A stretch of 24,000 bases of DNA from Methanobacterium sp. (GTDB taxonomy: Archaea; Methanobacteriota; Methanobacteria; Methanobacteriales; Methanobacteriaceae): contig JASEIM010000005.1 of NCBI GenBank assembly GCA_030017655.1, forward strand, positions 32,063-56,062, given 5' to 3'. Below are positions 2,032 to 21,133 of this stretch, piece after piece. How positions within the stretch are numbered: the stretch's first letter is position 1; each line of letters begins with the position of its first letter. Made by a program: the position numbers and the translations under genes. A model generated the notes under the pieces. It was not told the DNA's origin and did not search any database. It worked only from the letters and a program-made list of their open reading frames with translations.

Positions 2032-3018
2032 TTAATTTGTAAACTCTTCGGTTGCATATTCGTTGAATGCCTTTTCAAATACCCATTCCATACTTAGGTA
2101 GCGCTCGCCTGTATCTGGAAGAATAACAACAATTCTTTTAACCTTATTTTCTTCTCTTTTCGCCACTTCAAGGGCTGCATAAACTGCAGCGCCTGATGAG
2201 ATACCTGCAAGAATTCCTTCTTCCCTTGCCAGTCTAACCATTGTATCTGCTGCATTTTCATCTTTTACCTTGATAATTTCATCTATTAAATCTATTTCCA
2301 GTACATCAGGTATAAATCCTGCACCTATTCCCTGTATTTTATGGGATCCTGGCTGTCCTCCAGACAGTACGGGTGATGCTTCTGGTTCTACAGCTATTGC
2401 CTTAAAATCAGGATTTTTTTCCTTCAGAACCTGTGCAACACCAGTTAAAGTCCCTCCGGTACCAATACCTGCAACCAAAATATCTACTTTACCGTCTGTA
2501 TCTCTCCATATCTCATTTGCAGTTGTTTGTCTATGTATTTTGGGGTTTGCCTTGTTTTTAAATTGCTGAGGCATTACTGCATTTGGTAATTTTTCCACAA
2601 GCTCTTCGGCCTTTGCAACTGCACCTTTCATTCCATTTGCACCAGGAGTTAAGACAATTTCTGCACCTAAAAGCGCGAGCAATTTTCTTCGTTCCATGGA
2701 CATCGTGTCAGGCATGGTGAGAACTAATCTGTAATCTTTAGCCGCTGCGACAAAAGCAAGAGCTATACCTGTATTTCCGCTTGTTGGCTCCACTAAAACT
2801 GTTTCTTTATTTATAAATCCTTCCTTTTCGCCTTGTTCAATCATCGCCACTCCAATTCTATCCTTTACACTGCTTAAAGGGTTGAATGATTCTAATTTTG
2901 CCAGAACTTCTGCCTGTGCACCTTCTGTAATTCTATTCAACCTTACCAGAGGAGTATTTCCTATAAGTTCTGTAGCATCGTTTGCTATTCCTCTTTTTAA
3001 TTCTGGTATTTTAACCAT
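2032..3018 (-). CDS. cysK: Cysteine synthase A / O-acetylserine sulfhydrylase (PLP-dependent)
   Basis: '[12 protein letters not shown]' and '[11 protein letters not shown]' (PLP-lysine motif SxKDR), '[12 protein letters not shown]', and the glycine loop '[10 protein letters not shown]'. RBS AAGGTGA lies 5-6 nt upstream of the ATG at 3018. Confidence 0.92.
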
Positions 3019-3067: not shown

Positions 3068-3085
3068 ATATAACTATAGTTATAT
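3068..3085. promoter_or_regulatory. Operator-like palindrome ATATAAC-TATA-GTTATAT in the cysK promoter region
   Basis: Perfect copy. Its centre is about 58 nt upstream of the cysK ATG, where an archaeal TATA/BRE would be expected for a short leader. Confidence 0.5.
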
Positions 3086-3124: not shown

Positions 3125-3142
3125 ATATAACTATAGTTATGT
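3125..3142. promoter_or_regulatory. Second, one-mismatch copy of the palindrome (ATATAAC-TATA-GTTATGT)
   Basis: Read directly. Lies 57 bp from the first cysK site. Confidence 0.4.
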
Positions 3143-3167
3143 TTCTTTAATTTAATTTGGTATATAA

Positions 3168-3185
3168 AATTAACGATCGTTATAT
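3168..3185. promoter_or_regulatory. Third, degenerate copy (AATTAAC-GATC-GTTATAT)
   Basis: The right arm is perfect and the left arm has 2 mismatches. The core TAAC-GATC-GTTA is itself a perfect palindrome. Confidence 0.25.
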
Positions 3186-3195
3186 TAAATTAAAA

Positions 3196-3546
3196 TTAGA
3201 AAATATATTCTTTTTCTTTTTGAATTAATTCATATACCTTCTTTAAGGCGTCTTCTATTAACATTGGTATAATTACAGGCTGAATTCCGTGAGAAATAAG
3301 CATATCCGCAGCCCCCCGACCTATATCGCTCACCAGAACCCCATCACAATCTGAAATGAGATTTACAGCATCTTCCAGTAAAGAATCATGACTATCAATG
3401 GCACATGCTGGCTTGTTCTGTCGAGTTTCCAAATATTCGTAGCTCCCATCATCTTTAAGTTCAACTATCAAAAATTGCTGTGCCCTGCCAAAATGCTGAT
3501 TTACGAATTTTCCATCACTACTGGCTATTGCTATTTTATATGACAT
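3196..3546 (-). CDS. NifX/NifB-C-terminal-like protein (dinitrogenase FeMo-cofactor biosynthesis domain family, function unknown in methanogens)
   Basis: 'MSYKIAIASSDGKFVNQHFGRAQQFLIVEL...CDGVLVSDIGRGAADMLISHGIQPV' matches the characteristic pattern of this domain family ('KIAvaSsdG..vsqHFGra..F.iyd'). I prefer the ATG at 3546 because family members start at 'M.(K)IA'. The tracked ORF extends to 3591 with an uncharacteristic 15-aa leader. Confidence 0.75.
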   Translation of the reverse strand: MSYKIAIASSDGKFVNQHFGRAQQFLIVELKDDGSYEYLETRQNKPACAIDSHDSLLEDAVNLISDCDGVLVSDIGRGAADMLISHGIQPVIIPMLIEDALKKVYELIQKEKEYIF

Positions 3547-3607
3547 TTTAAGAATTCCCTTATTACAATAATATCTCCTGATCAATAACATATTTATTTA
3601 TTGGGCA

Positions 3608-4306
3608 TTAATCCCTAGTACTAAGCTCACCTCTATTATATAAACGCTGGAGTTCCGATGCATGTTTTAATTCATATTTCCATGTTGGAAGATTAAAAAA
3701 AGGGAATAAAGCCCCTTGCATAAAGTAATAATATGCTGCTATTCTACCATATTTTTTCCATGTTATATAATAATAAAGAGGAAAACCGCATCCCTGATTC
3801 ACTAGGGGACTTCCAGAACGTACTGTTCCATGATAAACCATTGGAATAGAGTTATTTTGCCCATTTTCCTTTGCAATGCCATAAACATAATTTAAAGCTT
3901 CATCGAGAGTATCAAACTCAATTCCGTCAGCCCTAAATCTCATTTTATCATCTGGAAGTCCAAATATAAACGCATTTATAACTTCTCTCCAATCTATAGG
4001 TACATCCGAGCCTTTTTTATCAATAAAGCCCAGTTGTATTATTGTTACATTTCCTTCCATATAATGGCTGTATTTCGAACTTCCCGCATAATGAAGCACT
4101 AATATACATTTAGACCCTCTTTCTTCCGCATATTGGGCTAAAAGTCTGGAATGCAGATGTCCCGGATACATATCAGGATCCTGAAACTTAACAAATGATA
4201 ATCTTCCAAAAGGTTCAATATCCCCTTCTGTGGCCAATGTATGTCCATATCCTCCAAAAAATAGAAATATTATTATTAATCCTGATAAAAGTTTCAAATG
4301 CTTCAT
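3608..4306 (-). CDS. Exported or membrane-anchored protein of unknown function (aromatic-rich)
   Basis: N-terminal hydrophobic signal/anchor 'LKLLSGLIIIFLFFGGYG'. The remainder is soluble and Tyr/Phe/Trp-rich ('FPLYYYITWKKYGRIAAYYYFMQGALFPFFNLPTWKY'). I recognise no family. Confidence 0.6.
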   Translation of the reverse strand: MKHLKLLSGLIIIFLFFGGYGHTLATEGDIEPFGRLSFVKFQDPDMYPGHLHSRLLAQYAEERGSKCILVLHYAGSSKYSHYMEGNVTIIQLGFIDKKGSDVPIDWREVINAFIFGLPDDKMRFRADGIEFDTLDEALNYVYGIAKENGQNNSIPMVYHGTVRSGSPLVNQGCGFPLYYYITWKKYGRIAAYYYFMQGALFPFFNLPTWKYELKHASELQRLYNRGELSTRD

Positions 4307-4574: not shown

Positions 4575-6950
4575 CTAAATGTCCTTAGAAGAAGCCTTAT
4601 ATAAAACAGGTTCAAGTTTATCAAGAGCCTTACTTACCTGCTTGTCGAATTCTACAAGTTTAGATGCCAATCCCCTAAAGTATGGGGCATAAACCTTATA
4701 ATACATTAATCTATCCGGATCTATACTATTTTTTAGAATTTCAGACCTGATTTCTCCCACTTTTTCTTGTATAGCAGGATACATTATATCATCAGGATAT
4801 TCACCTAAAAATATACCATCTGCACCATTTTCAAATGCATACAAAATATGTTTTGGCATTAAACGATTTATCGATGGTATTCTAATGATTCTAACTGATT
4901 CTGGATAGGATATTCTATTTATTCCAATATTATCGGCGGCCACATAACCAATATAATCTACAAAAGCAAGAATTCTTCTTTCACCATCTTTTTTGTCCTT
5001 TAGCATGCCTGAAATCATTGCAAATATTTGACTATCTGTTTGGCCCATTACTTCAACTGCTTCATTCTTACATTTTGAAATACATATTCCACAACCAGTG
5101 CAGGCAATAGGATCAACGGATATACGTTCATCATGCATATAAATAGCCTTATATTTACATGCTTTCACGCATTCGCCGCACATTTCACATTTATAATGAT
5201 CAACTACGGCGATTGTAGGTTCTATCTCTAATCCGCCATTCATTATCTCCGAAACTTTAGATGCAGCTGCATTTGCCTGAGACACACTATCTGTAATATC
5301 TTTTGGGCCCTGTGCAGTTCCACAAACATAAATTCCTTCAACATCAGTGGTTACCGGTTTTATCTTTGGATGTTTCTCTTTTACGAACAAATCTTCAGTA
5401 AGACCCACATTTAATTTCTCTGCAACTTTTAATGTTCCTTCCGATGGTTCCATTGCCTCTGATAAAACAACCATATCAGTTTCAATCTCTACTTGTTCAC
5501 CGCGAAGAGTGTCTTCAACTCTTACAACTAGATTATCACCGATCTTTGCTATATCTCCAGGACGCCCTCTTATCAGTTTAATTTCCTTAGATTGTACATG
5601 TCTGAAGTAATTTTCGTACATTCCAGGGGTTCTCATGTCTGTATAACAGATGATTATTTCAGTATCAGGATAATAGCGCCGGATAAAGTTTGCATGCTTT
5701 AACGCAACCATGCAGCAGACTTTTGAACAATATCTTTTTCCTTCAGGTTTTTCATCCCTGGAACCAGCACATTGAACCATTACCACTCTTCTTGGAATTT
5801 TACCATCTGATGGTTTGAGCAGTTTACCATTAGTAGGCCCATTAACGCCCATTATCCTTGCAAGCTCCATTTGAGTTATAACATCTTCATACCTTTCATA
5901 TCCATATTCTGGACGTTTTTTAAGGTCAAATCCTTTATGTCCTGTTGCTATAACTACTGATCCTACATTAAGAGGTATGATTTCACCTTTCATTTTAAGA
6001 TTAATAGCTCTCATTGTACAGACTTTCTGACATTTTCCACATTTAATACAATGTTTTTCATCAATCGTATAAACATCTGGAACTGATTGAGGAAATGGCT
6101 TATAAATCGCCTTTCTTAACATCAATTTTTCATTCCATTCATTAGGAACATCGACAGGACAAACTTCAGCACAGTTACCGCATGCTATACATTTATCTTC
6201 ATCAACAAAACTTGGTTTTCTTTCAACAAGCAAACTGAAGTTTCCAGCTTTTCTTTGGGAGGATTTAAGCTCTGCATTAGTGATTATAGTGATATTTTTA
6301 TGCTGGACGGCTTCATTTATCAGCGGATTAAAAAGACATAATGCACATTCTTCTGCAAGCTTTTCTGGGGAAAAAACCTTACCGATTTTTATCATGTTTC
6401 CCCCAACAGTTGGCTTTTCTTCAATTATGTGGACTTTAATACCCTGTTTTGCCAGTGAAAGCGCTGCAGTTATTCCAGATATTCCTCCACCAATTACAGC
6501 TGCGCTTTTTTTTGTTTTTCTAACTATTGCATCCAGAGGTCTGGCATACTGGACCCTTTCAATGGCCGCATTTGTAAGGGATATTGCCTTTTCTGTTGCC
6601 TTATCCACGTCTGAATGCACCCATGAACACTGTTCCCTTATATTTGCCATCTCAAGCAGATATGGATTTAAGGGGGCAACATGATTTCTAAAGGTTTTTT
6701 CGTGGGTAATTGGTGAACATGCTGCAATTACCACCCTATCTAATTCTTCCTCAAGTATAATGTCCCTTATATTCTTCTGACACTTTATAGAGCAAAGATT
6801 TTCAAATTCTTTCACCACTTTAGCATCTATTGAGGATTTAAGCCTCCCAATATCTACAGTGTCAGAAATGTTTCCCCCACATTTACATAGAAAAACTCCT
6901 ATATCAATGCTGCTTTTTGGAGCGTATCTTGAAAAATGACCGTTATTCAA
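4575..6950 (-). CDS. hdrA: Heterodisulfide reductase subunit A-like flavo-iron-sulfur protein fused to a C-terminal MvhD-like domain (HdrA2-type architecture)
   Basis: N-terminal HdrA cluster motif 'IGVFLCKCGGNIS...VVIAACSP...NIREQCSWVH'. FAD fold 'AAVIGGGISGITAALSLAKQG'. Inserted 2x[4Fe-4S] ferredoxin 'CIACGNCAEVCPV...CIKCGKCQKVC'. 'VQCAGSRD...YCSKVCCMVALKHA'. C-terminal ferredoxin 'CEMCGECVKAC...CTGCGICISKC'. Then the MvhD/FlpD-like 'ILAFVDYIGYVAADNIGINRISYPESVRIIRIPS...FENGADGIFLGEYPDD'. Start is TTG at 6950 with a GAGGT RBS 6 nt upstream. Confidence 0.85.
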   Translation of the reverse strand: MNNGHFSRYAPKSSIDIGVFLCKCGGNISDTVDIGRLKSSIDAKVVKEFENLCSIKCQKNIRDIILEEELDRVVIAACSPITHEKTFRNHVAPLNPYLLEMANIREQCSWVHSDVDKATEKAISLTNAAIERVQYARPLDAIVRKTKKSAAVIGGGISGITAALSLAKQGIKVHIIEEKPTVGGNMIKIGKVFSPEKLAEECALCLFNPLINEAVQHKNITIITNAELKSSQRKAGNFSLLVERKPSFVDEDKCIACGNCAEVCPVDVPNEWNEKLMLRKAIYKPFPQSVPDVYTIDEKHCIKCGKCQKVCTMRAINLKMKGEIIPLNVGSVVIATGHKGFDLKKRPEYGYERYEDVITQMELARIMGVNGPTNGKLLKPSDGKIPRRVVMVQCAGSRDEKPEGKRYCSKVCCMVALKHANFIRRYYPDTEIIICYTDMRTPGMYENYFRHVQSKEIKLIRGRPGDIAKIGDNLVVRVEDTLRGEQVEIETDMVVLSEAMEPSEGTLKVAEKLNVGLTEDLFVKEKHPKIKPVTTDVEGIYVCGTAQGPKDITDSVSQANAAASKVSEIMNGGLEIEPTIAVVDHYKCEMCGECVKACKYKAIYMHDERISVDPIACTGCGICISKCKNEAVEVMGQTDSQIFAMISGMLKDKKDGERRILAFVDYIGYVAADNIGINRISYPESVRIIRIPSINRLMPKHILYAFENGADGIFLGEYPDDIMYPAIQEKVGEIRSEILKNSIDPDRLMYYKVYAPYFRGLASKLVEFDKQVSKALDKLEPVLYKASSKDI

Positions 6951-6959
6951 TTTTATACC

Positions 6960-7907
6960 TCATAAACATGGATTAATCTGCTTTATTTCCTTTAAAATTC
7001 GTTCTACAGGAACTGTATGTGTTTGAACTCCTACAACAGTGTAAGGGTCAGCTCCAAGTGCAAGAGCCAAAAATTGAGAAATATTAAGGCATATAATATT
7101 AAATTCTACACCTAATGATTTTCCAATTACTTTTTGATTTCTGTCAAACTGCAGCTGGCAGTTAGGACACATTAGAAGAAGAATATCAACCTCATTCTCC
7201 TTTAAACTTAAAAGTTTTTCGGCAGTTATAGAAAATGATAACTCTTTATTCATATAACGCTGCCTGAAACCGTTACCACACGTACTGGTTTTACGATCAT
7301 ACCAGTCTACGGTTTCCACGCCACATGCTTTAGCAAGAGTTTCTAAAACCATTGGATCTCTTTCATTTCCAATTGTATCTTTTTGATGAACTTTACAGTA
7401 GTGACATGCATGATGTGCAGCCACTTTAAAGCTAGATAAATCTACTTCCACAAGATCCTGAATTTCATCTACCTTTTTATAAAGAATTTCAGTTGTATGG
7501 AATATATTATCCCTTGAATCTATATTTTCCAAATTATATTTTAAATCAGAAAGCCCTGAATCTTCAAATATTTTGTTTACGCTATTTCTAATATGATCCT
7601 TTTTATTGAGGATATTTGCTGATTTTTTTAGTATTGCATAACAGGTAGCGCACAATGTAGCAATATTTTCATGTCCTTCTTCTCTTGCAATTCCAAAATT
7701 TCTTGCTGATAGTGCAGTGGTTGAAAATTGGTCAAAAAGATCGGCATAATGCCCTAAACCAGTACAGCATGATTGTCTTTCGCTTATACTATATTCAATT
7801 CCCAGTTTATCAAATAGAAACTTTGTTGAGGATTCTACACCCGGATACTCAACATTTACAAGACAGCTTTTGAAGAGTAAAATCTTTTTATCTGGTATTT
7901 TCTTCAT
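6960..7907 (-). CDS. hdrB: Heterodisulfide reductase subunit B-like protein (two CCG domains, the second non-canonical)
   Basis: The N-terminal CCG motif is complete: C15-x31-C47C48-x37-C86-x2-C89. The C-terminal motif reads C171-x37-T209-C210-x36-C247-x2-C250, with an extra C168. It overlaps the hdrC stop by 20 nt and ends 9 nt before the hdrA start. Confidence 0.8.
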   Translation of the reverse strand: MKKIPDKKILLFKSCLVNVEYPGVESSTKFLFDKLGIEYSISERQSCCTGLGHYADLFDQFSTTALSARNFGIAREEGHENIATLCATCYAILKKSANILNKKDHIRNSVNKIFEDSGLSDLKYNLENIDSRDNIFHTTEILYKKVDEIQDLVEVDLSSFKVAAHHACHYCKVHQKDTIGNERDPMVLETLAKACGVETVDWYDRKTSTCGNGFRQRYMNKELSFSITAEKLLSLKENEVDILLLMCPNCQLQFDRNQKVIGKSLGVEFNIICLNISQFLALALGADPYTVVGVQTHTVPVERILKEIKQINPCL

Positions 7908-8511
7908 TTTTACATCGCCTTACCCTTTCTAGTCTTTTAGTAAACCCTGTCTTCTCCAAAATTTTGTTGATGTCACTTACATCTTTTTCTGCTAATAACA
8001 GGGATCCAAGACCCAGTTTTTCCCTTATATTATCCAGGTTAACCTTTAATTCAAGCCATTCCTTTCCATAATCCTTCAATAGATCCTCAGAAAAGTCATC
8101 AGGAATTGTTCCAAGTCCAAATTCAAGGAAATAATCACCATATGCCGAAAAAGGGGCTATTTTAGGTTTTCCTCTTCCATGGTCAATTGCTTTTTGTCTT
8201 AAAATTTGATTTAATTCACATGGACTGTTATTTACCGGGCATACGCTGTGACAGGTGTAACAGTAAAAACAATTCCAGATTATATCATCTGTAATTAAAT
8301 TTTCATCTTTATCCAGTACTCTTTTAACTATTTCTCTTGGATCGTAGTCTGTGTGTCTTGCTGCTGGACATACTGATGTACACATTCCACACTGAATACA
8401 TTTAAGAAGTCCGAGATTTTCTGACGCTTTTAAGTCTTTAATAATGCTTTCTACAAGTTCAAAGGTATTTTCACCTATTTTAAGAGTATTCATCTCTATT
8501 TTACCTCGCAT
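7888..8511 (-). CDS. hdrC: Heterodisulfide reductase subunit C-like 2x[4Fe-4S] ferredoxin
   Basis: 'CIQCGMCTSVCPAA' and 'CFYCYTCHSVCPV' cluster motifs in an HdrC-sized protein directly upstream of hdrB. An alternative start at the second ATG (8493, 'MNTLKIG') has a GAGGT RBS 9 nt upstream and may be the true start. Confidence 0.8.
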   Translation of the reverse strand: MRGKIEMNTLKIGENTFELVESIIKDLKASENLGLLKCIQCGMCTSVCPAARHTDYDPREIVKRVLDKDENLITDDIIWNCFYCYTCHSVCPVNNSPCELNQILRQKAIDHGRGKPKIAPFSAYGDYFLEFGLGTIPDDFSEDLLKDYGKEWLELKVNLDNIREKLGLGSLLLAEKDVSDINKILEKTGFTKRLERVRRCKNEENTR

Positions 8512-8567
8512 GTAACTGTGACATTATAAAATTGAAAATTTGATCTTATTATAATAGCCCCTTTAAG

Positions 8568-8575
8568 TATATAAA
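8568..8575 (-). promoter_or_regulatory. Candidate TATA box (TTTATATA on the minus strand) for the hdrCBA operon
   Basis: Matches the archaeal TATA consensus and lies 57 nt upstream of the ATG at 8511. AT-rich context, so specificity is low. Confidence 0.3.
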
Positions 8576-8645
8576 TTAAAAACAAAAATCCAAATAAGGG
8601 TCTGTTTAGCCTTTAACATATCATATATCTATAATTACAATTGTT

Positions 8646-8663
8646 ATATAACAATAGTTATAT
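8646..8663. promoter_or_regulatory. Operator-like palindrome ATATAAC-AATA-GTTATAT upstream of hdrC, overlapping a 16-bp perfect palindrome ATTGTTATATAACAAT (8640-8655)
   Basis: Perfect copy of the motif seen at 1144 and 3068. Located in the 222-bp intergenic region upstream of hdrC, about 143 nt from the ATG at 8511. Confidence 0.45.
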
Positions 8664-8733
8664 ATACTTTGCCTTTAAAAGTTTTTCATTAACTTAAATC
8701 TAACAATTTAAAAAATAATAGAAATCCTAAGTA

Positions 8734-9546
8734 TCATTTGCTTTTTTTAATTATCTCTTTTAATTCATTAATTTCTGTCAGCATTTCCTGGCGCATATTT
8801 TCCATTTGAGATTTCATTTCTTCCAATGTTTTGTCAGATTCCTCTTTAGTTTCTTTTTCAATCATAATAGAAGCCAATGAAGCCGTTAATAAACTCATAA
8901 AAAATACACCTGCAATCATTATAATTGCTCCAGTAATTCTACCTCCAACTGAATCTGGACTAATATCCCCATAACCTACAGTGGTAATTGTAACTATAAC
9001 ATACCATAAAGCATCATCAAAGCTGTCAACACTGCCATTTGAGCCATGTTCAAGTAAAAAGAATGATACTGTTCCTGCTGCAAAAATAAATAAAAATATG
9101 ACTGCACCATGAACAATTTGTGTTTTTCGAAGGAAATCCAGAATGTTTTTTTGACCTTTTCTAATAAGTACAAAAACCCTTGCAAGTCTTGCTAATCTCA
9201 TGATCCTTATAAATCTAATAAGGCCTATATAATCAGAAGCAATTACAGCAAGGAAATCTACAGGTACCATAGCAACCATATCAACCCAATTTTTGCGTAT
9301 ATACTTTAATTTACTCTTTTCATTTCGTATTTTAATCATGAACTCAAAAAATAATATAATACAAACAAAAAGGTCAAATTCTATTATTAGATTGCGTATA
9401 GACTGAGGCATGTCAATAAATGTCATTAAAATAATTAAAAACAGATCAGTTATAATCAGGACGATTATAATTGCCTCTATACTCTGCTTAACTTTGTCAT
9501 CAACAGTATCTATGAACTTTAAATGATGCTTAATTTTTTGATTCAT
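8734..9546 (-). CDS. Voltage-gated (6-TM, Kv/KvAP-like) potassium channel
   Basis: S4-like helix with Arg/Lys at every third position ('RFIRIMRLARLARVFVLIRK'). K+ selectivity filter 'TTVGYGD'. Multiple hydrophobic helices and a C-terminal charged coiled-coil-like tail. Confidence 0.85.
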   Translation of the reverse strand: MNQKIKHHLKFIDTVDDKVKQSIEAIIIVLIITDLFLIILMTFIDMPQSIRNLIIEFDLFVCIILFFEFMIKIRNEKSKLKYIRKNWVDMVAMVPVDFLAVIASDYIGLIRFIRIMRLARLARVFVLIRKGQKNILDFLRKTQIVHGAVIFLFIFAAGTVSFFLLEHGSNGSVDSFDDALWYVIVTITTVGYGDISPDSVGGRITGAIIMIAGVFFMSLLTASLASIMIEKETKEESDKTLEEMKSQMENMRQEMLTEINELKEIIKKSK

Positions 9547-11566: not shown

Positions 11567-12046
<480 letters not shown>

Positions 12047-12050
12047 TTTA

Positions 12051-12289
12051 TTCCTCCAAAAAATCTTTGATTTTTTGTGGTCCCAAAACCTTTGGTTTTG
12101 AAGACCTCCAAATTTTTCAAAATTGAAAATTTTGAACCGACAAAAACTTCGTTTTTGTCAGTTCGATTTGGGTTTCGAAAAAATCTGTCAAAATTCAGAG
12201 AATTTTGACGCACGAGAAACTGATTTTCTCTGCCCCAAACATGAAATGTTCGAAGGCAACAAAAATCAAAGATTTTTTTTATGCTTCGA
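12051..12289. other. TA-dinucleotide-free, palindrome-dense element (candidate structured leader, intercistronic RNA or ncRNA)
   Basis: I found no TA between 12051 and 12279 by base-by-base reading. Perfect hairpins/palindromes: 12058-12076 (8 bp, loop TTT), 12084-12100 (7 bp, TTT), 12134-12164 (13 bp with one mismatch, loop TTC), 12187-12209 (10 bp, AGA), 12214-12230 (6 bp), 12238-12250 (5 bp, GAA), and 12250-12289 (outer 6 bp enclosing 12261-12277, 7 bp, loop AAA). Confidence 0.5.
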
Positions 12290-12341
12290 TTTTTCTCAAC
12301 TCCGAATTACTTAAATAACTGTAAATGACTGAAGATGAGTC

Positions 12342-13937
12342 TTATTCTTCAGTAAGCATCTTTTTTTTCTCTGTAGGTGTGAGATCTTCTACTATAGACT
12401 CTGGATCTCCTTCTTTTAAGATTTTCCCCCCTCTCATAAGGGCTGCCCTATCACAAACATCAAGTACAAAATCCATGTCATGTGATATTATAAGGAAAGT
12501 CTGGTTTAATTCGTCTCTCGCCTTTCTTATGGAATCTGTGACCTGGACTCTTGTTATTGGGTCCATTGTTCCTGTAGGTTCATCAAGAATTACTATATTT
12601 GGCTCTTTAATTAGAACCTGAGCTAAAGCTACTCTATGACGTTCTCCACCACTTAGTTCATCAGGATATTTAGTTAAAAGACTTTCAGCATATTCTTCAT
12701 CAAAACCAACCGCTCTAAGTACGTATATTGCTTTCATTTTTGCAAATTCTGCAGGCAATTCTAAACTTATTGCCTCAGTTAAATTTCCCAGAACAGTTCT
12801 ATGAGGATAAAGACTGTATTCTTGATGAAGAATGCCTAAATAAGGCTTAATTCTTCCTCTTCCAAACGGACCGGATTCTGTCATATCCACCCAATCATCC
12901 CCAAGTTTTACAACTATATCACCAGTACTTGGTTCTGTTAATCCATAAAGAATTCTTGAAAGAGTTGTTTTACCAGCTCCACTTAAACCAACAATACCAA
13001 AAATCTCTCCTTCATCAACTAAAAGGTCTATGCCATCCACAGCTTTCACTACACCCCGTTCTATGGAGTAATAATGCTTTTTGACATTGTTCATCTTGAT
13101 CATTGGCCCTCCTGTCTGATAATCATTTCTTTTTTCAGGAAGAGGTACCTGATCTAAGAATCTTTTTACAACAGATTCTGGATCTCCTTCATCAATAACT
13201 TCGCCTTTTTCTAACCAAATTACATAATCTGAAAGTTTTCTCATAACTTCTGGCCAGTGAGAAGTAATGATCATTGTTGTGCCTTTTTCTTTTACACCTT
13301 CTAGCAGTGCCTGATGTATAAGCTCTGCAGTTTTAGGATCAAGAGTACCCGTAGGTTCATCTGCTAAAAAAATCATAGGTTCTTTTGCTATTTGTCTTGC
13401 TAGAACCACCCTTTGCTTTTCCCCACCACTCAAATCTCTTGCAATGTGAGTTATCCTATGGGTCATCTGGGTCATTTCAAGAAGATCTATAGCCATATAC
13501 ATACTTTCTTCTTCATCATGATGGTCAATTGACTTTAAAACGTTGTCAATTACGCTGTCATCTTCATAGAGGGCAAATGTCCGTTGAAGCATGATAGAAA
13601 TCCTTCTTCTAATTGCAGCAAATGTTTTTCTATCTGTATTCCAGAGATCAACACGTTTTGCTTCGAATTCCCCCCCACATGCACATTTCTGTCCTACTTT
13701 TGATGGGGCGTCAACTAAAACACATTCTGGACATATTGCAATATTATAAATTACTTTACCATTATCTGGCTTGTATTCCTTCATTCCACGGAGCATATTT
13801 ATTAGTACGGATTTCCCAGCGCCGCTTCTACCTAAAATACCAAGTACACTGCCTTCATTTATGGTTATATTCAAATTTTTTAAAACAGCTACGTCATTAA
13901 ATGTTTTAGTGACATTTTCTAATTCTATAAAAGACAT
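12342..13937 (-). CDS. atwA: Methyl-coenzyme M reductase system component A2 (tandem ABC ATPase)
   Basis: Two ABC nucleotide-binding domains with Walker A 'GRSGAGKS' and 'GLSGAGKT', signatures 'LSGGEKQRV' and 'LSGGERHRV', and Walker B 'IFLADEPTG' and 'IVILDEPTG'. A Cys-rich insert '[24 protein letters not shown]' in NBD1 is typical of A2. RBS GGGTGA lies upstream of the ATG at 13937. Confidence 0.88.
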
Positions 13938-14839: not shown

Positions 14840-15595
14840 TTATTCTTTCATAACATGGACAAGATCGTAAGTAAACCCGCCCCTTATCTCTTCAAGAGCC
14901 AGATCTGCCAGATTAGCAGCTTTTTCGGCTGTTGGAGCTTTTCCAACCCCTGCTTTGAGTGCTATGTTTGTTTCATCCTCAATTTCTTCAATTATTTTTA
15001 AAAGTCCTTCAGGCTTAAGTCCGTTGCATGGGGACATGAAATTATCTCCACCTATAAAGAAGAGAAGTGATCCTTTTTCTATTAATTTTTTCATTAAAAA
15101 GTGCTGGACTCTATTTACAATAAAAGAAGTATCATAAGCAGGAATAATGTCAGTTAAAGAATCAGTAATTCCATTTATATCAATGTGTGCAATTTGAACA
15201 AAGCTATCTTCTTTGTTTACAAGACCCTCTATAGCCAGAACCTCGCTACGTTCTTCGGATTGTGCACCACCATAATTTTGAAGTGCTGCTGTAGCATCTC
15301 TTTGGGCTTCATAGGGTGTTTCAGCAGCCCCTACACCCATACTTACTGTAATTGGATATCTATTACCTATTGAACGCTGTATTCTCATGTGATCTTCCAT
15401 TTCGACATTATTAGTTATTGCAAGCATGTTATCAAAGCGGGTGAAAAAAACTAGTCCTCCTTTGGCTGCAAATTGTCTCTGAAGATCTGCATAAAGTTCT
15501 GCCTGTAAAATCTGTAAATCTGCTTCGGCCCTTGGTGTTGGAGTAACGGTCCAGGGCCCATAATTATCAATCTGAATTAAAGTCATCTGTATCAT
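14840..15595 (-). CDS. gch3: GTP cyclohydrolase III (archaeal riboflavin/F420 precursor pathway)
   Basis: '[26 protein letters not shown]...F....GL.F.TRFDN.LAITN' and '[13 protein letters not shown]' closely follow the MJ0145-type enzyme as I recall it. There is a 4-nt ATGA overlap with cofD. Confidence 0.88.
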
Positions 15596-16497
15596 AAAAT
15601 TTCACCCAAAACAATTCTGGCTAACATCACTTTATCATCCATAGTCTTCATGTTTGTGTTTGTTGTCATAACATCAGATATTAGTTTTTCTATTTTTTTC
15701 TTGGATCCTTCATCTTCATTATCTATAATAAACCTGTCCATAAATTCCTGATAAATATTTGCAATTCCAGTGCAGGATACTTCAAAACCCTTAGCATTCA
15801 TAAATTTTGCAGCAGGACCGCTTACGGGATTCTTCCCAATAATAGGAGATACCGCCACAACATATACTTTTTTAAGGACTTCTTTAACTCCTTCCATTGA
15901 AATTATTGGCCCTATAGATGTAATTGGATTAGAAGGCCCTATAATAACCATATCTGACGATTCAATTGTTCTAATTAAATTAGTTGATGGTTCAACTTCA
16001 TTATATATAATATCTTCTACTTCAGGATTTCCTTTTTCTTCAACCAAAAATTTATGAAAACTCATCTCGCCCTTATCTGTAATGATCTTTATATTTGATT
16101 GCTCATCACTCATGGGAATAATTTTCGATTTAATACCTAAATTCTTTCTCTGGATATCTACAACCTTAGAAAGAGGATATTTATCCATTAATAAAGTTTT
16201 TTGGATTTTAAAGGCCCTATCTTTATCTCCAATCCTTAAGATTTCATTATATCCAATTTTTTTTAATGTTTCATGTGTTATGAATGTATCATCATGGATG
16301 CCATACCATGTTTCTTCATTTATCATTCCTGCAAGGGTATACATCACAGTATCTATATCCGGTGCTATGTAATTTCCAGATATATATGTATTTTCAACAG
16401 TATTTACAATTACATTAATATCTTCAGGATCAATGATCTTAATTATTCCCTGAATTAATTTTGGAGTACCTGTTCCACCAGAAAGTATGGATATCAT
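15592..16497 (-). CDS. cofD: 2-phospho-L-lactate transferase (LPPG:FO transferase, F420 biosynthesis)
   Basis: '[16 protein letters not shown]' N-terminal motif, '[13 protein letters not shown]', CofD size (301 aa), and a position adjacent to cofE. Confidence 0.88.
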
Positions 16498-16528
16498 ATA
16501 ATCCCTTAAATATATTAATTAAATTAAG

Positions 16529-17290
16529 CTATCTAAACACGTCGTGTTTTTTAGATCTTACCAAATCCTTTGAAGTGGCTTCATTATTTTTTAATCTTTT
16601 GGTGTATTCAACACCCTTTATTAAAACAACAGGTATTCCCTCATCAGCCTGACCCATTAAAATCGATGCTGCTCCCGCTAATTCATCTGCAACTGCTATA
16701 CTTGTTGTTTGAAGTTCTCTTCCATAAAGATCTTTTTCTCCTTTCCTATCCCATAACGGATTCATGCCCGATATTCCAACTGCAGTTCCAATAGCTCCTT
16801 CTCTAAAGGCTCTTCCCTGAGTATCAGATATTATAACAACAATCTCTTTACTGGTCGCTTTTTCTATACTTTCCCTAGTTAAAGCAGCACTCCTATCAGG
16901 ATCGGCAGGAATTGGAGTTGCAAGCCCATCATCAACATTTGATTCATCTATACCTGCATTAGCACATACAAATCCATGTTTTGTTTCTGAAATTATAAAA
17001 TCAGGCCCAACTTTTATTATTTCGTTTGATTCCTGAATTATAGCCTCAACAAGGCGTGGATCTTTTCCTGTTTTATCTGCAAGTTCCTTAGCTTTGAGAC
17101 TGGGTTTAATGGAATCCAGATCAACTATATTCCCTTCTGCTTTTGCAATTATAGTTTCAGCTATTACAAAAACATCGCCGTCTTCAATCTCAATATTCTC
17201 TTTATCTATTGCATTTAATATTAAATCTGCAATATCATCCCCTTCGTTTATTAAAGGGATACTTCTAATTCCAATAAGTCTAATTTCCAT
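16529..17290 (-). CDS. cofE: Coenzyme F420-0:L-glutamate ligase
   Basis: '[13 protein letters not shown]', '[16 protein letters not shown]', '[17 protein letters not shown]' and '[15 protein letters not shown]' are CofE signature segments. RBS GGTGA. Confidence 0.88.
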
Positions 17291-17317
17291 TAATTCACCT
17301 AAAAAGATAAGATAAAG

Positions 17318-17920
17318 TTATAGGGAAGCAATCTTCCATTCTTTATCTGCAAATGCCGCCACTGAATCAACGGGGTTGGTGAATTTTTCAAATTCTCCAC
17401 CATCAAATATGAATTGAGCAGCCTCATCTGCATTGCTACAAATAAATTCAACATAATTGGGCTTTATATGTTCATATGTGGAGATATATGAGCATTCACC
17501 AGTATTAACCTTCTCAACAATGACACTTTCCTTAGTAACTATTCCTATATATGACTCCCCTTCCAAAGTTGTTGCTCCGGCAATACGAGGAGTATTAAAA
17601 TCATCTTTCTCATAATCCATAGTAAGTAATGTTAATGCAATTGAATCCCTAATATCCATTCCAGAAGCAATTTTTTCTGCAATTATATCCGTATGAGCCC
17701 CATTTGAGACCACTGCAACATCATCAACTATCCTTATACAGTTATAAGCAATATAAGGGTTTTTAAAGACATCAGTCTCATGCCCTTCTTTAGGTACAAT
17801 TGCTGCCCTATCTTCAAAAGTTTTCACCATCCTATTTGGGAAAGATCGGCTTGAAACCCTGTATGCAACGAAATTTCCCTTTTCTGTACATCCTACCGCT
17901 AATATTCTTCCAAGATACAT
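17318..17920 (-). CDS. purO: Archaeal IMP cyclohydrolase
   Basis: '[10 protein letters not shown]....G...[12 protein letters not shown]' N-terminus and ~200-aa size are characteristic of PurO. RBS GAGGTGA. Confidence 0.85.
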
Positions 17921-18004: not shown

Positions 18005-18403
18005 TTAGTCACCAGGAGTTTTTACAGCTTTATCTGGGGAAAATCCGAGTGGTGTGGTTATAATTATCTCTCCATTTTTTGGTCTGATAATCATTTCGCC
18101 CCCATCAATTACATCTGTATGAACTGCAATTGCCCCGTCCTTTATGTAGCCTGACATATCCTGTCCATTAACCGTGACCTTTTTAAGCCCTGCTACAGGG
18201 ATTAAATAGTATTCAGTCGGCCCATTGCTTTCGGTTATTTGGGGCTTTCCATAATCTGATTGGGATGAATCAGTCGCAGAAAAACTGCTTGTAACCATTA
18301 GAAATATTAAAATAGTAAAAACAACATCAATAAATGGAACCATGTTGAACCGGGGATTATTTTCGCGTAATTTGCTCCTATATTTATTTACATTAAGAGT
18401 CAT
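18005..18403 (-). CDS. ExbD/TolR-family biopolymer transport protein
   Basis: 'FNMVPFIDVVFTILIFLMV' single N-terminal TM with the conserved Asp, followed by a ~80-aa extracytoplasmic domain. Lies 12 nt downstream of the ExbB-like gene. Confidence 0.8.
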   Translation of the reverse strand: MTLNVNKYRSKLRENNPRFNMVPFIDVVFTILIFLMVTSSFSATDSSQSDYGKPQITESNGPTEYYLIPVAGLKKVTVNGQDMSGYIKDGAIAVHTDVIDGGEMIIRPKNGEIIITTPLGFSPDKAVKTPGD

Positions 18404-18415
18404 AGAATCACTTCT

Positions 18416-19255
18416 TTACTGCATCAATTTACTTTCAATAATTTCCGCCCGGGTATTGCATTTTTCCATAATAATATTGGAGATACTTTTTTCAAGCATG
18501 CTGGGTTTAAAAGCTACCCATATATTTGCATCAGGATCATCAATTTCTTTAACCTTTACAATTCCTTCAGATTCCCTTAATGCATCAATTGCTCCTTCAG
18601 GTTCAATTTCAACTTTTATCCTCATTACTGCAGTTCTCCAGTTGGTCATTTTTTTGGCAATCTCTATTTTATCCATCTCATTTTCTATTCTGCTTGTTAT
18701 ATTAGAATAAAGAGGAAGTAAAATTATTGCCACAGTAAGTCCTGCTATGGTGGTAATTAATGAAATATAAATCCCTCCCGCCATTGCAGTGGGACTTGCA
18801 TCCACACCAAGCGCTTTAAATGTGTACCACATACCGAGAACTGTTCCTATAAGTCCTAAAAGCGGGGCTATTTCAATTATCATCTTTATGGTGCCCAAAC
18901 CCTTGGTCATGCTTCCTATTTCAACAATGAAAACACGTTCCATAGCATCTTCAACTTCAATCTTGTTTCTGTAACCGATTTTTAAGGCTTCTGAAATTAT
19001 TTTAGAAATAGGATTATGATATTTACCAATGGATCGTAAGGCTTCAAGAGATCCTCCTTTTTCCATTGCATCATTTACTGTTCCCATAATAAGAGGAGGG
19101 GAAATTTTGGATATTTTTCGTAAATAAAATATCTTCTCAATTGAAGTTATGAAACCATATATGCCTATAATAGCTATAATATAAGTTATGACTCCTCCGC
19201 TTTTAAACATCTCCAGTATAGTGCCCAAAGTACTGCTTAGAAACTCATATATCAT
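18416..19255 (-). CDS. MotA/TolQ/ExbB-family proton-channel protein with an extra ~80-aa C-terminal soluble domain
   Basis: Three TM helices. Family core 'IAPLLGLIGTVLGMWYTF...GGIYISLITTIAGLTVAI'. After the last TM comes 'MRIKVEIEPEGAIDALRESEGIVKVKEIDDPDANIWVAFKP...', which is not part of the canonical family. Confidence 0.8.
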   Translation of the reverse strand: MIYEFLSSTLGTILEMFKSGGVITYIIAIIGIYGFITSIEKIFYLRKISKISPPLIMGTVNDAMEKGGSLEALRSIGKYHNPISKIISEALKIGYRNKIEVEDAMERVFIVEIGSMTKGLGTIKMIIEIAPLLGLIGTVLGMWYTFKALGVDASPTAMAGGIYISLITTIAGLTVAIILLPLYSNITSRIENEMDKIEIAKKMTNWRTAVMRIKVEIEPEGAIDALRESEGIVKVKEIDDPDANIWVAFKPSMLEKSISNIIMEKCNTRAEIIESKLMQ

Positions 19256-19379
19256 TGTGCATCAGTCCTCGCGGTTATAATGTTCATGGTACCTCAATAA
19301 GTATCTGATATTTTTACTGTTTTAACTGCTTTAAATAATATTTATCTGAATATATATTGATTACAGTTTAATTATTAAA

Positions 19380-19991
19380 TTATTTTTGATTCTTTTTTAC
19401 AGTTGCCCATGATTTTCTAACGAAGTATGGCAAATTTTCATAAGAGAAACGTTTTAAAAATGCTATAGTTTTAGGATCACTAGGATAACCAGAACCTACA
19501 TCTCTGTATTCCTTTCTTATTTTTTCAATTTCCATATCCCGCTCAACTTTAGCAACTATAGAGGCTGCGGCTACAATTGGATATTTATCCTCAGCTTTAT
19601 GTTCTGCTATAACCTTAAGACCGTTTCTGAAATTCTCCATTTCATCACAAAATCTCTGAGGCTTAACATCAAGACAATCTATATATGCAGTATCTGGATT
19701 GGACATGCCAATTACTTTTTTAATGGCTATTTTTTCAATTTCATTTAGATTAATATCTTTAGCCCTTAAATTATCTATGTCGATGGCTTGAATATGAACT
19801 GTATGACATTCAGCAATCTTATTTATTCTTCTTGCCATTACTTTTCTTCTTCCGGGAGTCAAACGTTTAGAATCTTTTAATTGAAGCTTTTCAAGTTTTT
19901 CAAGTCTTTCTTCTTCAATTGCAACTCCGCATACAACAAGAGGTCCAATTACCGGCCCTCTCCCTGCCTCATCTATGCCTATAATTTTCAT
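19380..19991 (-). CDS. rnhB: Ribonuclease HII
   Basis: 'IIGIDEAGRGPVIGPLVV' (DEAGRG catalytic motif), 'DSKRLTP', 'AASIVAKVERD', 'GSGYPSD'. Confidence 0.92.
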   Translation of the reverse strand: MKIIGIDEAGRGPVIGPLVVCGVAIEEERLEKLEKLQLKDSKRLTPGRRKVMARRINKIAECHTVHIQAIDIDNLRAKDINLNEIEKIAIKKVIGMSNPDTAYIDCLDVKPQRFCDEMENFRNGLKVIAEHKAEDKYPIVAAASIVAKVERDMEIEKIRKEYRDVGSGYPSDPKTIAFLKRFSYENLPYFVRKSWATVKKNQK

Positions 19992-20059
19992 TGTTTCAAA
20001 AAAAAGATTTATATAATAAAAAAGAATTTGGTTTACTTATTTTAAAAAATAAGTAGATT

Positions 20060-21133
20060 TTATTTCATTGCTTTTAAACGGACTTCTGGTTCAAGTGCTC
20101 TTGGCTCTGCAGCAACAATTGCAGCTCCCTTTGCAACAACAGTCATGGGATCATCTGAAATTTCAACAGGGATCCCTACTTCATCGAATATTCTTTCTTT
20201 AAGGCCTTTTAGCTGTGAAGTTCCACCCACAACTACAGTTTCCTTATAAACACCAGAAATAAGTTCTGGTGACATTCTTTCAAGTATAGCTGCCAGTGCT
20301 TCAATAAGTTTTGCTACCACTGGTTCAGCAGCTTCTGCAACCAGATTTGAATCAATCTCTACTTCTTTTGGTTTGTTGGTTTCCATATCTTTCCCAATTA
20401 CTGTGGTTTTTGTAATCTCGATATCTGAACCTGAATTAACCATCCCAATTTCTATTTTAGCTTTTTCAGCCTCATGAATTCCTATTTCAACACTGTACAT
20501 TTCTTTAACTTTATCTACAATGTTATCATCAATATTATCCCCGCCGAGTCTTACCGTCTCAATATCTGTGATTCCACCGAGAGATATAACCACAATATCA
20601 CTTGATCCAGCGCCAATATCGATTACCATTGTACCTGATGCCTCTGCAATTGGTAATCCTGCACCTATTGCTGCTGCAAGTCCTTCACTTATAACTAAAA
20701 CATAGCTTGCACCTGCTTTTCTACCTATTTCTTCAACAGCATTCTTTTCAACTTCTGATGCATCTCCAGGAATACCAATAACTATTCTATCAATAGTATC
20801 CATTGAATCTCCTGAACCTCTATCCATTGCATATATTAGAAGCGCTTCTGCCTGTGCAACACTTTCAATAACTCCCTTTCTTAGCGGCCTTACTGCTACA
20901 ATATCTTCTGGAGTTCTTCCAAGCATTGATTTTGCATCATCACCAACTGCGAGCACATAAGATGGATCTTCTTTTTTTACAGCCACTACAGATGGAATTT
21001 TGTATAGATCAAATTTATCTCCGGATGGTTTTGCTACAACAGTGTTAAGCGTTCCTAAATCAATTCCTAAAGTATTTGCAATTCCTTCCTTCCTAATTTC
21101 CTCTTCTTCTTCTTTTTTTCTAAAAAGACGCAT
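20060..21133 (-). CDS. mreB: MreB-like actin-family (ASHA) filament protein
   Basis: Phosphate-1 'LGIDLGTLNTVVA', 'VAVRPLRKGVI', phosphate-2 'MVIDIGAGSSDIVVISLGG', adenosine motif 'VVVGGTSQLKGL'. MreB size, with a charged N-terminal extension 'MRLFRKKEEEEEIRKEG'. GGAGG RBS 6 nt upstream, inside the end of the preceding gene. Confidence 0.8.
   Translation of the reverse strand: MRLFRKKEEEEEIRKEGIANTLGIDLGTLNTVVAKPSGDKFDLYKIPSVVAVKKEDPSYVLAVGDDAKSMLGRTPEDIVAVRPLRKGVIESVAQAEALLIYAMDRGSGDSMDTIDRIVIGIPGDASEVEKNAVEEIGRKAGASYVLVISEGLAAAIGAGLPIAEASGTMVIDIGAGSSDIVVISLGGITDIETVRLGGDNIDDNIVDKVKEMYSVEIGIHEAEKAKIEIGMVNSGSDIEITKTTVIGKDMETNKPKEVEIDSNLVAEAAEPVVAKLIEALAAILERMSPELISGVYKETVVVGGTSQLKGLKERIFDEVGIPVEISDDPMTVVAKGAAIVAAEPRALEPEVRLKAMK

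Follow-up and report, generated by a model that had tools for sequence, protein, structure and literature searches.

The 24,000-nucleotide (nt) stretch of Methanobacterium sp. DNA analysed here, referred to as the window, carries an hdrC-hdrB-hdrA operon for a heterodisulfide reductase (Hdr) together with the cysteine genes cysK and cysE, and this study concerns an 18-bp palindrome that lies upstream of hdrC and recurs upstream of cysK. All genes of the locus are on the minus strand except cysS, whose 3' end occupies positions 12-677 on the plus strand. It is followed by the gene of our candidate regulator, a 132-aa helix-turn-helix (HTH)/Cys-rich protein (681-1079), by cysE (serine O-acetyltransferase, 1290-2003; TIGR01172, 240 bits) and cysK (O-acetylserine sulfhydrylase, 2032-3018; TIGR01139, 464 bits), and further on by hdrA (4575-6950), hdrB (6960-7907) and hdrC (7888-8493).

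The mechanical open reading frame (ORF) of hdrC extends to 8511. Homologues of HdrC start with MNT or MKT and the ATG at 8493 has a GAGGT ribosome-binding site before it; the gene therefore probably starts at this ATG and not at 8511. Between the mechanical ORF and an ion channel gene (8734-9546, minus strand) there is a gap of 222 bp (8512-8733), the same upstream region as given in the original prediction, and no plausible small ORF was found between the palindrome and hdrC.

A shared palindrome upstream of hdrC and cysK

The original prediction had read positions 8646-8663 as a perfect copy of the cys-locus motif, two half-sites ATATAAC and GTTATAT around the spacer AATA, and had taken this as a cis-element common to hdrC and the cys locus. 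Both points are confirmed. The sequence at 8646-8663, ATATAACAATAGTTATAT, matches the full 18-bp consensus and scores 25.8 bits with a position weight matrix (PWM) trained on 49 cysK-proximal sites from related genomes, on par with the best cysK site at 25.4 bits (ATATAACTATAGTTATAT, 3068-3085). The half-sites form an inverted repeat with 11 bp from centre to centre, which is about one helical turn. While they were not selection criteria, the two central spacer bases are A-T in 96 % of the training sites; the spacer is therefore not free and the true consensus reads ATATAAC-W-A-T-W-GTTATAT, where W is A or T.

With up to three mismatches, the 18-mer gives 7 strand-matches at 4 places in the window (1144, 3068, 3125 and 8646) compared to 0.13 expected, and 0 of 100 shuffles reach 7. 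Exactly two copies of the consensus are perfect, those at 3068 (cysK) and 8646 (hdrC), where base composition predicts 5.4e-5. Six sites in the window score at least 8 bits and each of them is intergenic: one lies upstream of the regulator gene, three of cysK and two of hdrC. It is the shuffle test, the PWM scores and the small number of perfect copies expected that bear out the shared element.

We compared the window with 159 loci of ±10 kb, 79 of them collected around orthologues of the candidate regulator and 80 around relatives of HdrC (single loci are cited by number, as L001 and so on). Across these loci, sites of at least 12 bits are found 240 times outside long ORFs and 6 times inside, with long ORFs making up 67 % of the bases. 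Substitutions in the half-sites are one-sided in 152 cases compared to 12 complementary double changes. As an RNA hairpin the palindrome is weak (−5.6 to −6.5 kcal/mol, z about −1.3), and an Rfam search with the element gave no match. The independent change of the half-sites, the weak hairpin and the lack of an Rfam match point to a DNA site for a protein rather than an RNA structure, and readings of the palindrome as an RNA hairpin/terminator or a riboswitch were ruled out on these grounds. We conclude that the palindrome at 8646-8663 is probably a conserved operator, as predicted from its sequence, which hdrC would share with cysteine and other sulfur-assimilation genes.

Layout of the upstream regions

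The strong site upstream of hdrC overlaps a weak second site at 8632-8649 (TAATTACAATTGTTATAT, 10.3 bits) that stands in a 14-bp register to it. The junction of the two is a perfect 16-bp palindrome at 8640-8655, ATTGTTATATAACAAT, which had been noted before, and the same overlapping double-site layout is seen at most cysK promoters of other loci, for example ATATAACAATTGTTATATAACTATAGTTATAT. A candidate distal BRE/TATA (BRE, transcription factor B recognition element), GCAAAG-TATATATA, may be placed at 8659-8672 on the minus strand, where it overlaps the promoter-distal half-site. The window and four other loci (L016, L084, L080 and L011) have the pattern CAAAG-N(1-3)-TATATA before the site. 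The proximal TATA candidate at 8568-8575 on the minus strand (TATATAAA on the plus strand, TTTATATA on the minus), which the original prediction had placed about 80 nt from the site, begins 71 nt downstream of the operator, or 83 nt from centre to centre. The proximal block TTTTTAATTTATATAC is kept in the window, L016 and L080, and not in L084.

At cysK, the strong predicted operator (3068-3085) is joined by a second at 3125-3142 (19.2 bits), about 20-35 nt downstream of a TATA at 3160-3169 on the minus strand. A third, weak and distal site at 3168-3185 (9.9 bits) abuts this TATA, TTTTATATAC, and is kept as ATATAACGATCGTTAATT in L001, L002, L007, L010 and L012. The order at cysK in the subgroup of the window is the TATA abutting the weak site, then the 3125 site, then the 3068 site. 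Many cysK promoters have a clear BRE/TATA, AAAGTTTATAAAT, 8-12 nt upstream of the double operator, so that the operator covers the expected transcription start.

The regulator gene is preceded by a site at 1144-1161 (ATATAACTTATGTTATAT, 10.6 bits), 65 nt upstream of its ATG, which is a candidate autoregulatory operator with an off-consensus spacer. Both here and in L001-L016 the half-sites are perfect while the spacers read TTAT, ATAG, CCAT and others instead of WATW. Sites of at least 10 bits precede the regulator gene in 31 % of loci, and a recognisable site or half-site does so in about 45 %. The presence of such off-consensus sites suggests weak autoregulation, and the spacer may mark an operator that is deliberately weak.

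Genes preceded by the palindrome

Sites with no more than one mismatch were selected, and the ORFs that follow them were clustered and then annotated with Pfam and NCBIfam. Such sites precede cysK in 53 loci, the regulator itself in 20, a ThiS-like sulfur carrier in 14, an NMT1/SsuA-like binding protein and a NifX-like protein in 9 each, a nitrogenase-like D/K/H trio in 8, Thi4 and an O-acetylhomoserine sulfhydrylase (metY-like) in 6 each, and an EamA exporter in 4. Further targets are cysE, the GMC oxidoreductase gene and hdrC. A site of at least 15 bits lies within 250 nt upstream of cysK in 98 % of the Methanobacterium loci (55/56). For comparison, the fraction within 250 nt upstream of control genes is 0/43 for cysS, 0/79 for hdrB, 0/17 for thiF and 2 % for hdrA, while GMC, the first gene of GMC-thiF-hdrCBA, has a site of at least 10 bits in 37 %.

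Taken together, the target set is functionally coherent and is a predicted sulfur-assimilation regulon. The tie between motif and cysteine genes that had been claimed for the window is thus seen at cysK in 55 of 56 loci and extends to the metY-like, thi4, thiS-like, nifX-like and regulator genes. A literature search gave no description of the motif, the regulator or the regulon, with tangential matches only (Yan 2017, PMC9963511, PMC12068725).

Two groups of sites in other loci are of separate interest. In L004 (3676-7713; also in L005, L014 and L015), the genes of a nitrogenase-like trio adjoin cysK and have the motif upstream; they encode a D protein of 509 aa, a K protein of 447 aa and a NifH-like protein of 292 aa. 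The NifH-like protein scores 394.2 bits against a nifH cut-off of 394.35, and D and K are far under the nifD/K/E/N cut-offs; the trio may be a nitrogenase-like sulfur-salvage enzyme resembling methylthio-alkane reductase. In L001-L016, a recurrent site pair, AATTAACAATTGTTATAT and ATATAACAATTGTTATAA, lies beyond cysS and before an O-acetylhomoserine-sulfhydrylase-like gene, about 2.0-2.4 kb downstream of the regulator gene (~12000-12450 of the locus; 3246/3404 in L006 and 7960/8105 in L010). The same loci have a further site before thi4 at ~18300-18800. Both the pair and the thi4 site are outside the window.

Conservation upstream of hdr operons

A site directly upstream of hdrC is rare, with 6 % of loci having one of at least 10 bits within 250 nt. 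Most hdr operons begin further upstream, with GMC, comA or comF, and we therefore tested the operon starts instead. Of 73 hdr operon starts, 12 have a site scoring 9 bits or more, compared to 1 in 215 upstream regions used as controls (Fisher p = 3.5e-7, the loci being related). Conservation before orthologous hdr operons had been named in the original prediction as a test of the link; it is real and partial, with sites commoner at operon starts than in the controls and the cysS→hdrC architecture mostly without one.

Among loci where the channel gene is followed by hdrC, as in the window, L016 has an exact copy of the site and L084 a weaker one. L080, with a different upstream gene, has a site of 22.3 bits. 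The operator is the best-conserved distal block in the alignment of the window, L016 and L084.

The usual arrangement elsewhere runs from cysS through a GMC-type FAD/FeS oxidoreductase gene and a ThiF/MoeB-type E1 gene to hdrC-hdrB-hdrA; the window has cysS nearby but GMC and thiF are missing. This is the commonest context, with a 4Fe-4S motif in the GMC protein (L086-L089, L069, L091, L095-L106 and L137). The palindrome precedes GMC in L137 (24.5 bits), L088 (15.8), L092 (15.5), L095 (13.9), L106 (13.6) and L091 (9.5), and weaker cores do so in L089, L098 and L102. Strong sites are also found before GMC-thiF in L011 (25.8 bits) and L071 (18.5 bits), with hdrC not seen downstream within the fetched DNA. 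The GMC promoter of L011, ccaaagatttATATAACTATTGTTATATaacaattgtaat, is nearly identical to the sequence upstream of hdrC in the window. This likeness suggests that the operator in the window is homologous to the operator of GMC-thiF-hdrCBA, with GMC-thiF missing here. The operators in L011, L091, L092, L106 and L137 are 30-90 nt from the first ATG, on or just after the BRE/TATA, which the sites abut in L091, L106 and L137.

Rumen-type loci (HdrC 45-48 % identical; L144, L153, L155 and L157) carry comA-methanogenesis marker 16-hdrCBA (~1.3-2.1 kb upstream of hdrC) and have a consensus or variant site, TAAC-N4-GTGATAT, before comA or comF. Marker 16 is ComF, the coenzyme M (CoM) synthase (TIGR03287, 534 bits; PMC12068725). 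A loose pattern, TAAC-N4-GT[TG]A over 3.3 kb, matched in 31/70 loci and was discarded because ~0.3 matches per region are expected by chance.

An HdrA2-type paralogue

The HdrA of the window (791 aa) has a fused C-terminal MvhD/FlpD domain (FlpD, PF02662, at residues 660-774) and the HdrB has two CCG domains. All three subunits are above the cut-offs of the NCBIfam models for 'ferredoxin:CoB-CoM heterodisulfide reductase' (CoB, coenzyme B), two of which are specific to Methanobacteria, with scores of 1436 against 1300 for HdrA (NF041891), 525.8 against 450 for HdrB (NF041780) and 306 bits against 270 for HdrC (NF041890). The models of the canonical Mvh-associated Hdr are missed by HdrB (TIGR03288, 193.9 against 345) and by HdrC (TIGR03290, 65 against 160). 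The hdr genes of the window are contiguous and the HdrA is fused, unlike the canonical separate hdrA and hdrBC, which are separate units in Methanothermobacter (Kaster 2011). A second hdr set was not found in any of the 159 loci, a search that covers the window and the ±10-kb loci only. By domain architecture and curated model scores, the Hdr of the window is an HdrA-MvhD-fusion (HdrA2-type) paralogue, whose presumed activity would be ferredoxin- or F420H2-dependent reduction of CoM-S-S-CoB, and the operon had rightly been called atypical.

This Hdr is like HdrA2B2C2 of Methanosarcina acetivorans in its HdrA-MvhD fusion and in passing NCBIfam models of the same class. It differs in that the Methanobacteriaceae form is a separate NCBIfam equivalog (NF041891) and in being encoded by a single hdrC-hdrB-hdrA operon among cysS, thiF, comF and cysKE. 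No HdrA2 homologues above 46 % identity were reported in obligate CO2 reducers (Yan et al. 2017, PMC5296606).

The family-wide neighbours of this paralogue are cysS, thiF, comF (MMP16), comA, cysKE and the regulator gene, and these conserved neighbours support the role in sulfur/thiol metabolism that had been suggested. Since the operator is shared with sulfur genes, the HdrA2-type enzyme probably belongs to a sulfur-supply programme and not only to core methane formation. Hints of a tie between Hdr and sulfur have been published for Methanosarcina, in which a ΔhdrABC strain grows much more poorly with cysteine as sole sulfur source (PMC9963511) and hdrABC is induced by CoM starvation (PMC12068725).

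The COG1900 enzymes L-ASST (MA1821/1822) and ComF/MMP16 carry out sulfide-dependent, ferredoxin-domain-assisted formation of homocysteine and CoM thiols in methanogens (PMC12068725). Hdr is no homologue of these enzymes and is tied to them by neighbourhood and shared motif only, with MMP16 directly upstream of hdrCBA in the rumen-type loci. A candidate for the electron donor of the COG1900 enzymes, which make homocysteine and CoM from aldehydes and sulfide, is suggested by the comA-comF-hdrCBA operons. It is conceivable, as a tentative proposal to which we give less than even odds, that HdrCBA of Methanobacteriaceae is a module so far missing from sulfide-dependent thiol biosynthesis, where it would deliver electrons or reduce disulfides or persulfides, beyond or instead of CoM-S-S-CoB reduction. 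Its partners would be ComF/MMP16, L-ASST-like proteins, ThiF-ThiS and CysK, and it would be co-induced with them by a regulator family that senses sulfide, thiols or iron-sulfur (Fe-S) clusters.

The candidate regulator

The protein encoded at 681-1079 consists of an HTH at the N-terminus and a helical, Cys-rich domain at the C-terminus, and has C5, C89xxC92, C102, H105 and C115xxC118. Its membership in the XRE/HTH_3 group is marginal, with a score of 23.9 bits against a cut-off of 23 over residues 21-53 only, and the C-terminal domain has no family match. We found no Rrf2 domain (PF02082) even at E up to 0.1 and no LysR or TetR match in Pfam. The pairs C89xxC92 and C115xxC118 do not vary among Methanobacterium orthologues and would be suited to a SurR-type CxxC switch; across the family, C115 and C118 are likewise invariant and C102 almost so. 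AlphaFold2 (AF2) models the protein with a pLDDT (predicted local distance difference test) of 79.6. Among solved structures, there is no PDB sequence match at E<0.1 and no Foldseek PDB match at E<0.3. The family, of ~120 aa, comprises 834 clusters at 50 % identity (E 1e-10 or better) and is uncharacterised. The closest relatives of the protein, 92 % identical, are from Methanobacterium sp. MBAC-AD1 and ACI-7.

The synteny cysK-cysE-regulator is found in more than 60 Methanobacterium loci, and the regulator gene is directly beside hdrCBA in L065, L067 and L071. In four Methanosphaera loci (L072, L073, L076 and L078) the orthologue (60-65 % identical) is beside a glutamate-cysteine ligase gene (PF04262) and not cysKE. 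The same loci have a conserved TATAAC-ATT-GTGAAA ~80-125 nt upstream of the ATG of the regulator orthologue.

Proposed mechanism and alternative explanations

We hypothesize that the palindrome is the operator of a sulfur regulon in Methanobacteriaceae, that the 681-1079 protein would bind it and that cysKE and hdrCBA would be repressed together, and we give this explanation as a whole a probability of about 0.65. The predicted co-regulation of hdrCBA and cysKE is well supported in silico. The binder would be a homodimer of the HTH/Cys-rich protein, whose gene is linked to cysK-cysE in more than 60 genomes and has its own site. With half-sites 11 bp apart, each HTH of the dimer would meet one of them. 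The cysK operators are on or just downstream of the BRE/TATA, which suggests a repressor geometry as with other archaeal repressors; occupancy would block the TATA-binding protein and transcription factor B (TBP/TFB) or the RNA polymerase.

At hdrC, the operator overlaps the conserved CAAAG-TATATATA, which would be a leftover of the promoter from which sister lineages express GMC-thiF-hdrCBA and would act as a regulated distal promoter with a start near 8630-8645. The proximal promoter at 8568-8575 may supply basal hdrC expression. Under this mechanism hdrCBA would be repressed and released together with cysKE. More speculatively, the conserved cysteines of the regulator could bind a metal or an Fe-S cluster or form a redox-active thiol pair, through which sulfide/thiol sufficiency would be reported, and the regulon would open under sulfur limitation.

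Several points weigh against this explanation. The loci were gathered around regulator and hdrC genes, so the motif census is local and not genome-wide, and the loci are phylogenetically related, so their counts are not independent. The proposed identity of the binder draws on synteny and putative autoregulation only. Before the regulator gene, the sites deviate from the consensus in their spacers, and fewer than half of the loci have one at all. Most cysS→hdrC operons, as well as L081 and L126, have no hdr-associated site. If the proximal TATA at 8568-8575 were the sole promoter of hdrC, a repressor bound 71 nt upstream could not occlude it.

This last point leads to the role that the original prediction had preferred, an activator or upstream site at hdrC. 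Under such a view the proximal hdrC promoter would have the site as its upstream activating sequence, and the same factor would repress cysK and activate hdrCBA. The conservation of the proximal block in the window, L016 and L080 suggests that this promoter is probably real, and the distance of 71 nt from its TATA is too far for occlusion. However, the site in the window overlaps the conserved CAAAG-TATATA, and the homologous operators in L011, L091, L092, L106 and L137 show repressor geometry on or just after the BRE/TATA. Characterised archaeal activators are known to bind near the BRE and not some 70 nt away, and opposite control of hdrCBA and cysKE fits poorly with their shared neighbours. 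Because the TATA-like element that the site overlaps is homologous to the promoter of GMC-thiF-hdrCBA, repression of a distal promoter is likelier, and we regard activation from upstream as unlikely. A further explanation is that the site is the non-functional operator of a former GMC-thiF-hdrCBA promoter, a relic left after the loss of GMC and thiF. The window has neither gene, the flank of the site shares homology with the GMC promoter of L011 and ~150 nt now separate the site from hdrC. The site is nevertheless still a perfect 25.8-bit consensus and persists in three or four diverged loci, with HdrC at 78-80 % identity, amid intergenic DNA that has changed, which makes a relic quite improbable.

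It is also conceivable that the regulon operator is real and is bound by another transcription factor encoded elsewhere, with the 681-1079 protein regulating something else. The protein is linked to the motif only by synteny and by weak off-consensus sites before its gene, and the Methanosphaera orthologues have no full consensus site nearby. Yet its gene is the only regulator gene with a consistent linkage, in more than 60 cysK-cysE-regulator loci and directly beside hdrCBA in three loci, and about 45 % of loci have a site or half-site before it; the Methanosphaera orthologue is next to a glutamate-cysteine ligase gene and preceded by TATAAC-ATT-GTGAAA. We consider another binder to be rather doubtful. 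That the palindrome is no protein site at all, and instead a chance AT-rich palindrome, a generic TATA-like sequence or an RNA hairpin/terminator of the ion-channel gene, might be argued from the low GC content of the genome (33.6 %), from the resemblance of the half-site TTATAT to a TATA box and from the position of the site 70-88 nt past the stop codon of the channel gene. Against it stand the shuffle test and the 5.4e-5 perfect copies expected, the conserved G/C positions and central AT, the coherent functions of the targets, the weak hairpin, the absence of compensatory covariation and the lack of an Rfam match. We find this explanation hardly credible.

Comparison with known regulators

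The predicted arrangement is that of an operator-repressor regulon, in which the uncharacterised Cys-rich regulator family and the tie of an HdrA2-type complex to cysteine, homocysteine, CoM and ThiS genes appear unusual. SurR of Pyrococcus and Thermococcus is an archaeal sulfur-response regulator of redox genes with a CxxC redox switch, and represses when its site overlaps the promoter. The system described here is like SurR in having short GTT/AAC-based promoter palindromes and CxxC motifs in the candidate regulator. In contrast to the SurR motif, GTT-N3-AAC, the palindrome reads AAC-N4-GTT, with GTT-N4-AAC at the junctions. SurR is an ArsR-type winged helix of ~230 aa that targets hydrogenase and S0-reduction genes, whereas the candidate regulator has 132 aa, an XRE-like HTH and a Cys-rich helical domain, and its predicted targets are assimilatory genes for cysteine, homocysteine, ThiS and Thi4.

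NrpR, the nitrogen repressor of methanogens, binds GGAA-N6-TTCC at nif and glnA with 2-oxoglutarate as effector, often at tandem sites that give graded repression. Its operators are likewise palindromes at or just downstream of the TATA or the transcription start, often in tandem, while consensus, protein family, effector and regulon are all different. The bacterial regulators CymR (Rrf2), CysB (LysR) and McbR (TetR) offer a parallel in that one factor and a shared operator serve cysK/cysE, methionine and sulfur-acquisition genes, with an autoregulation that is predicted here too. The regulator family is unrelated to them, the context is an archaeal BRE/TATA, and the predicted regulon takes in an Hdr paralogue, Thi4, ThiS/ThiF and nitrogenase-like genes.

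In the literature searched, we found no description of a transcriptional regulator that controls sulfur assimilation in methanogens. The locus supplies a concrete predicted operator, a candidate regulator and a candidate regulon for this process. The shared operator and the recurrent linkage to cysS, thiF, comF, comA and cysKE amount to a specific hypothesis for an Hdr paralogue outside core methanogenesis. Methanobacterium and Methanobrevibacter dominate digesters and the rumen, and the control of their sulfur and CoM supply bears on methane mitigation.

Other features of the window

A NifX-like protein is encoded at 3196-3591 (minus strand). Between this gene and hdrA is a gene for a 232-aa protein with no family assigned (3608-4306, minus strand), which has a hydrophobic N-terminus and no match in Pfam or NCBIfam; of its homologues in other loci, ~29 % are preceded by the motif. 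The ion channel gene is followed by hemA and a gene of sirohaem synthesis. Further along, positions 14840-17920 and 18005-21133 hold an F420/purine cluster (GTP cyclohydrolase III, CofD, F420 gamma-glutamyl ligase and IMP cyclohydrolase), and after it come ExbB/ExbD-like genes, RNase HII and a MreB homologue, with no relation to the operator. A contig from an activated-sludge metagenome (L085, ENA UOYA01010297) is 100 % identical to residues 56-207 of the HdrC of the window, which suggests that the organism of the window or a very close strain is present in activated sludge or digester samples.

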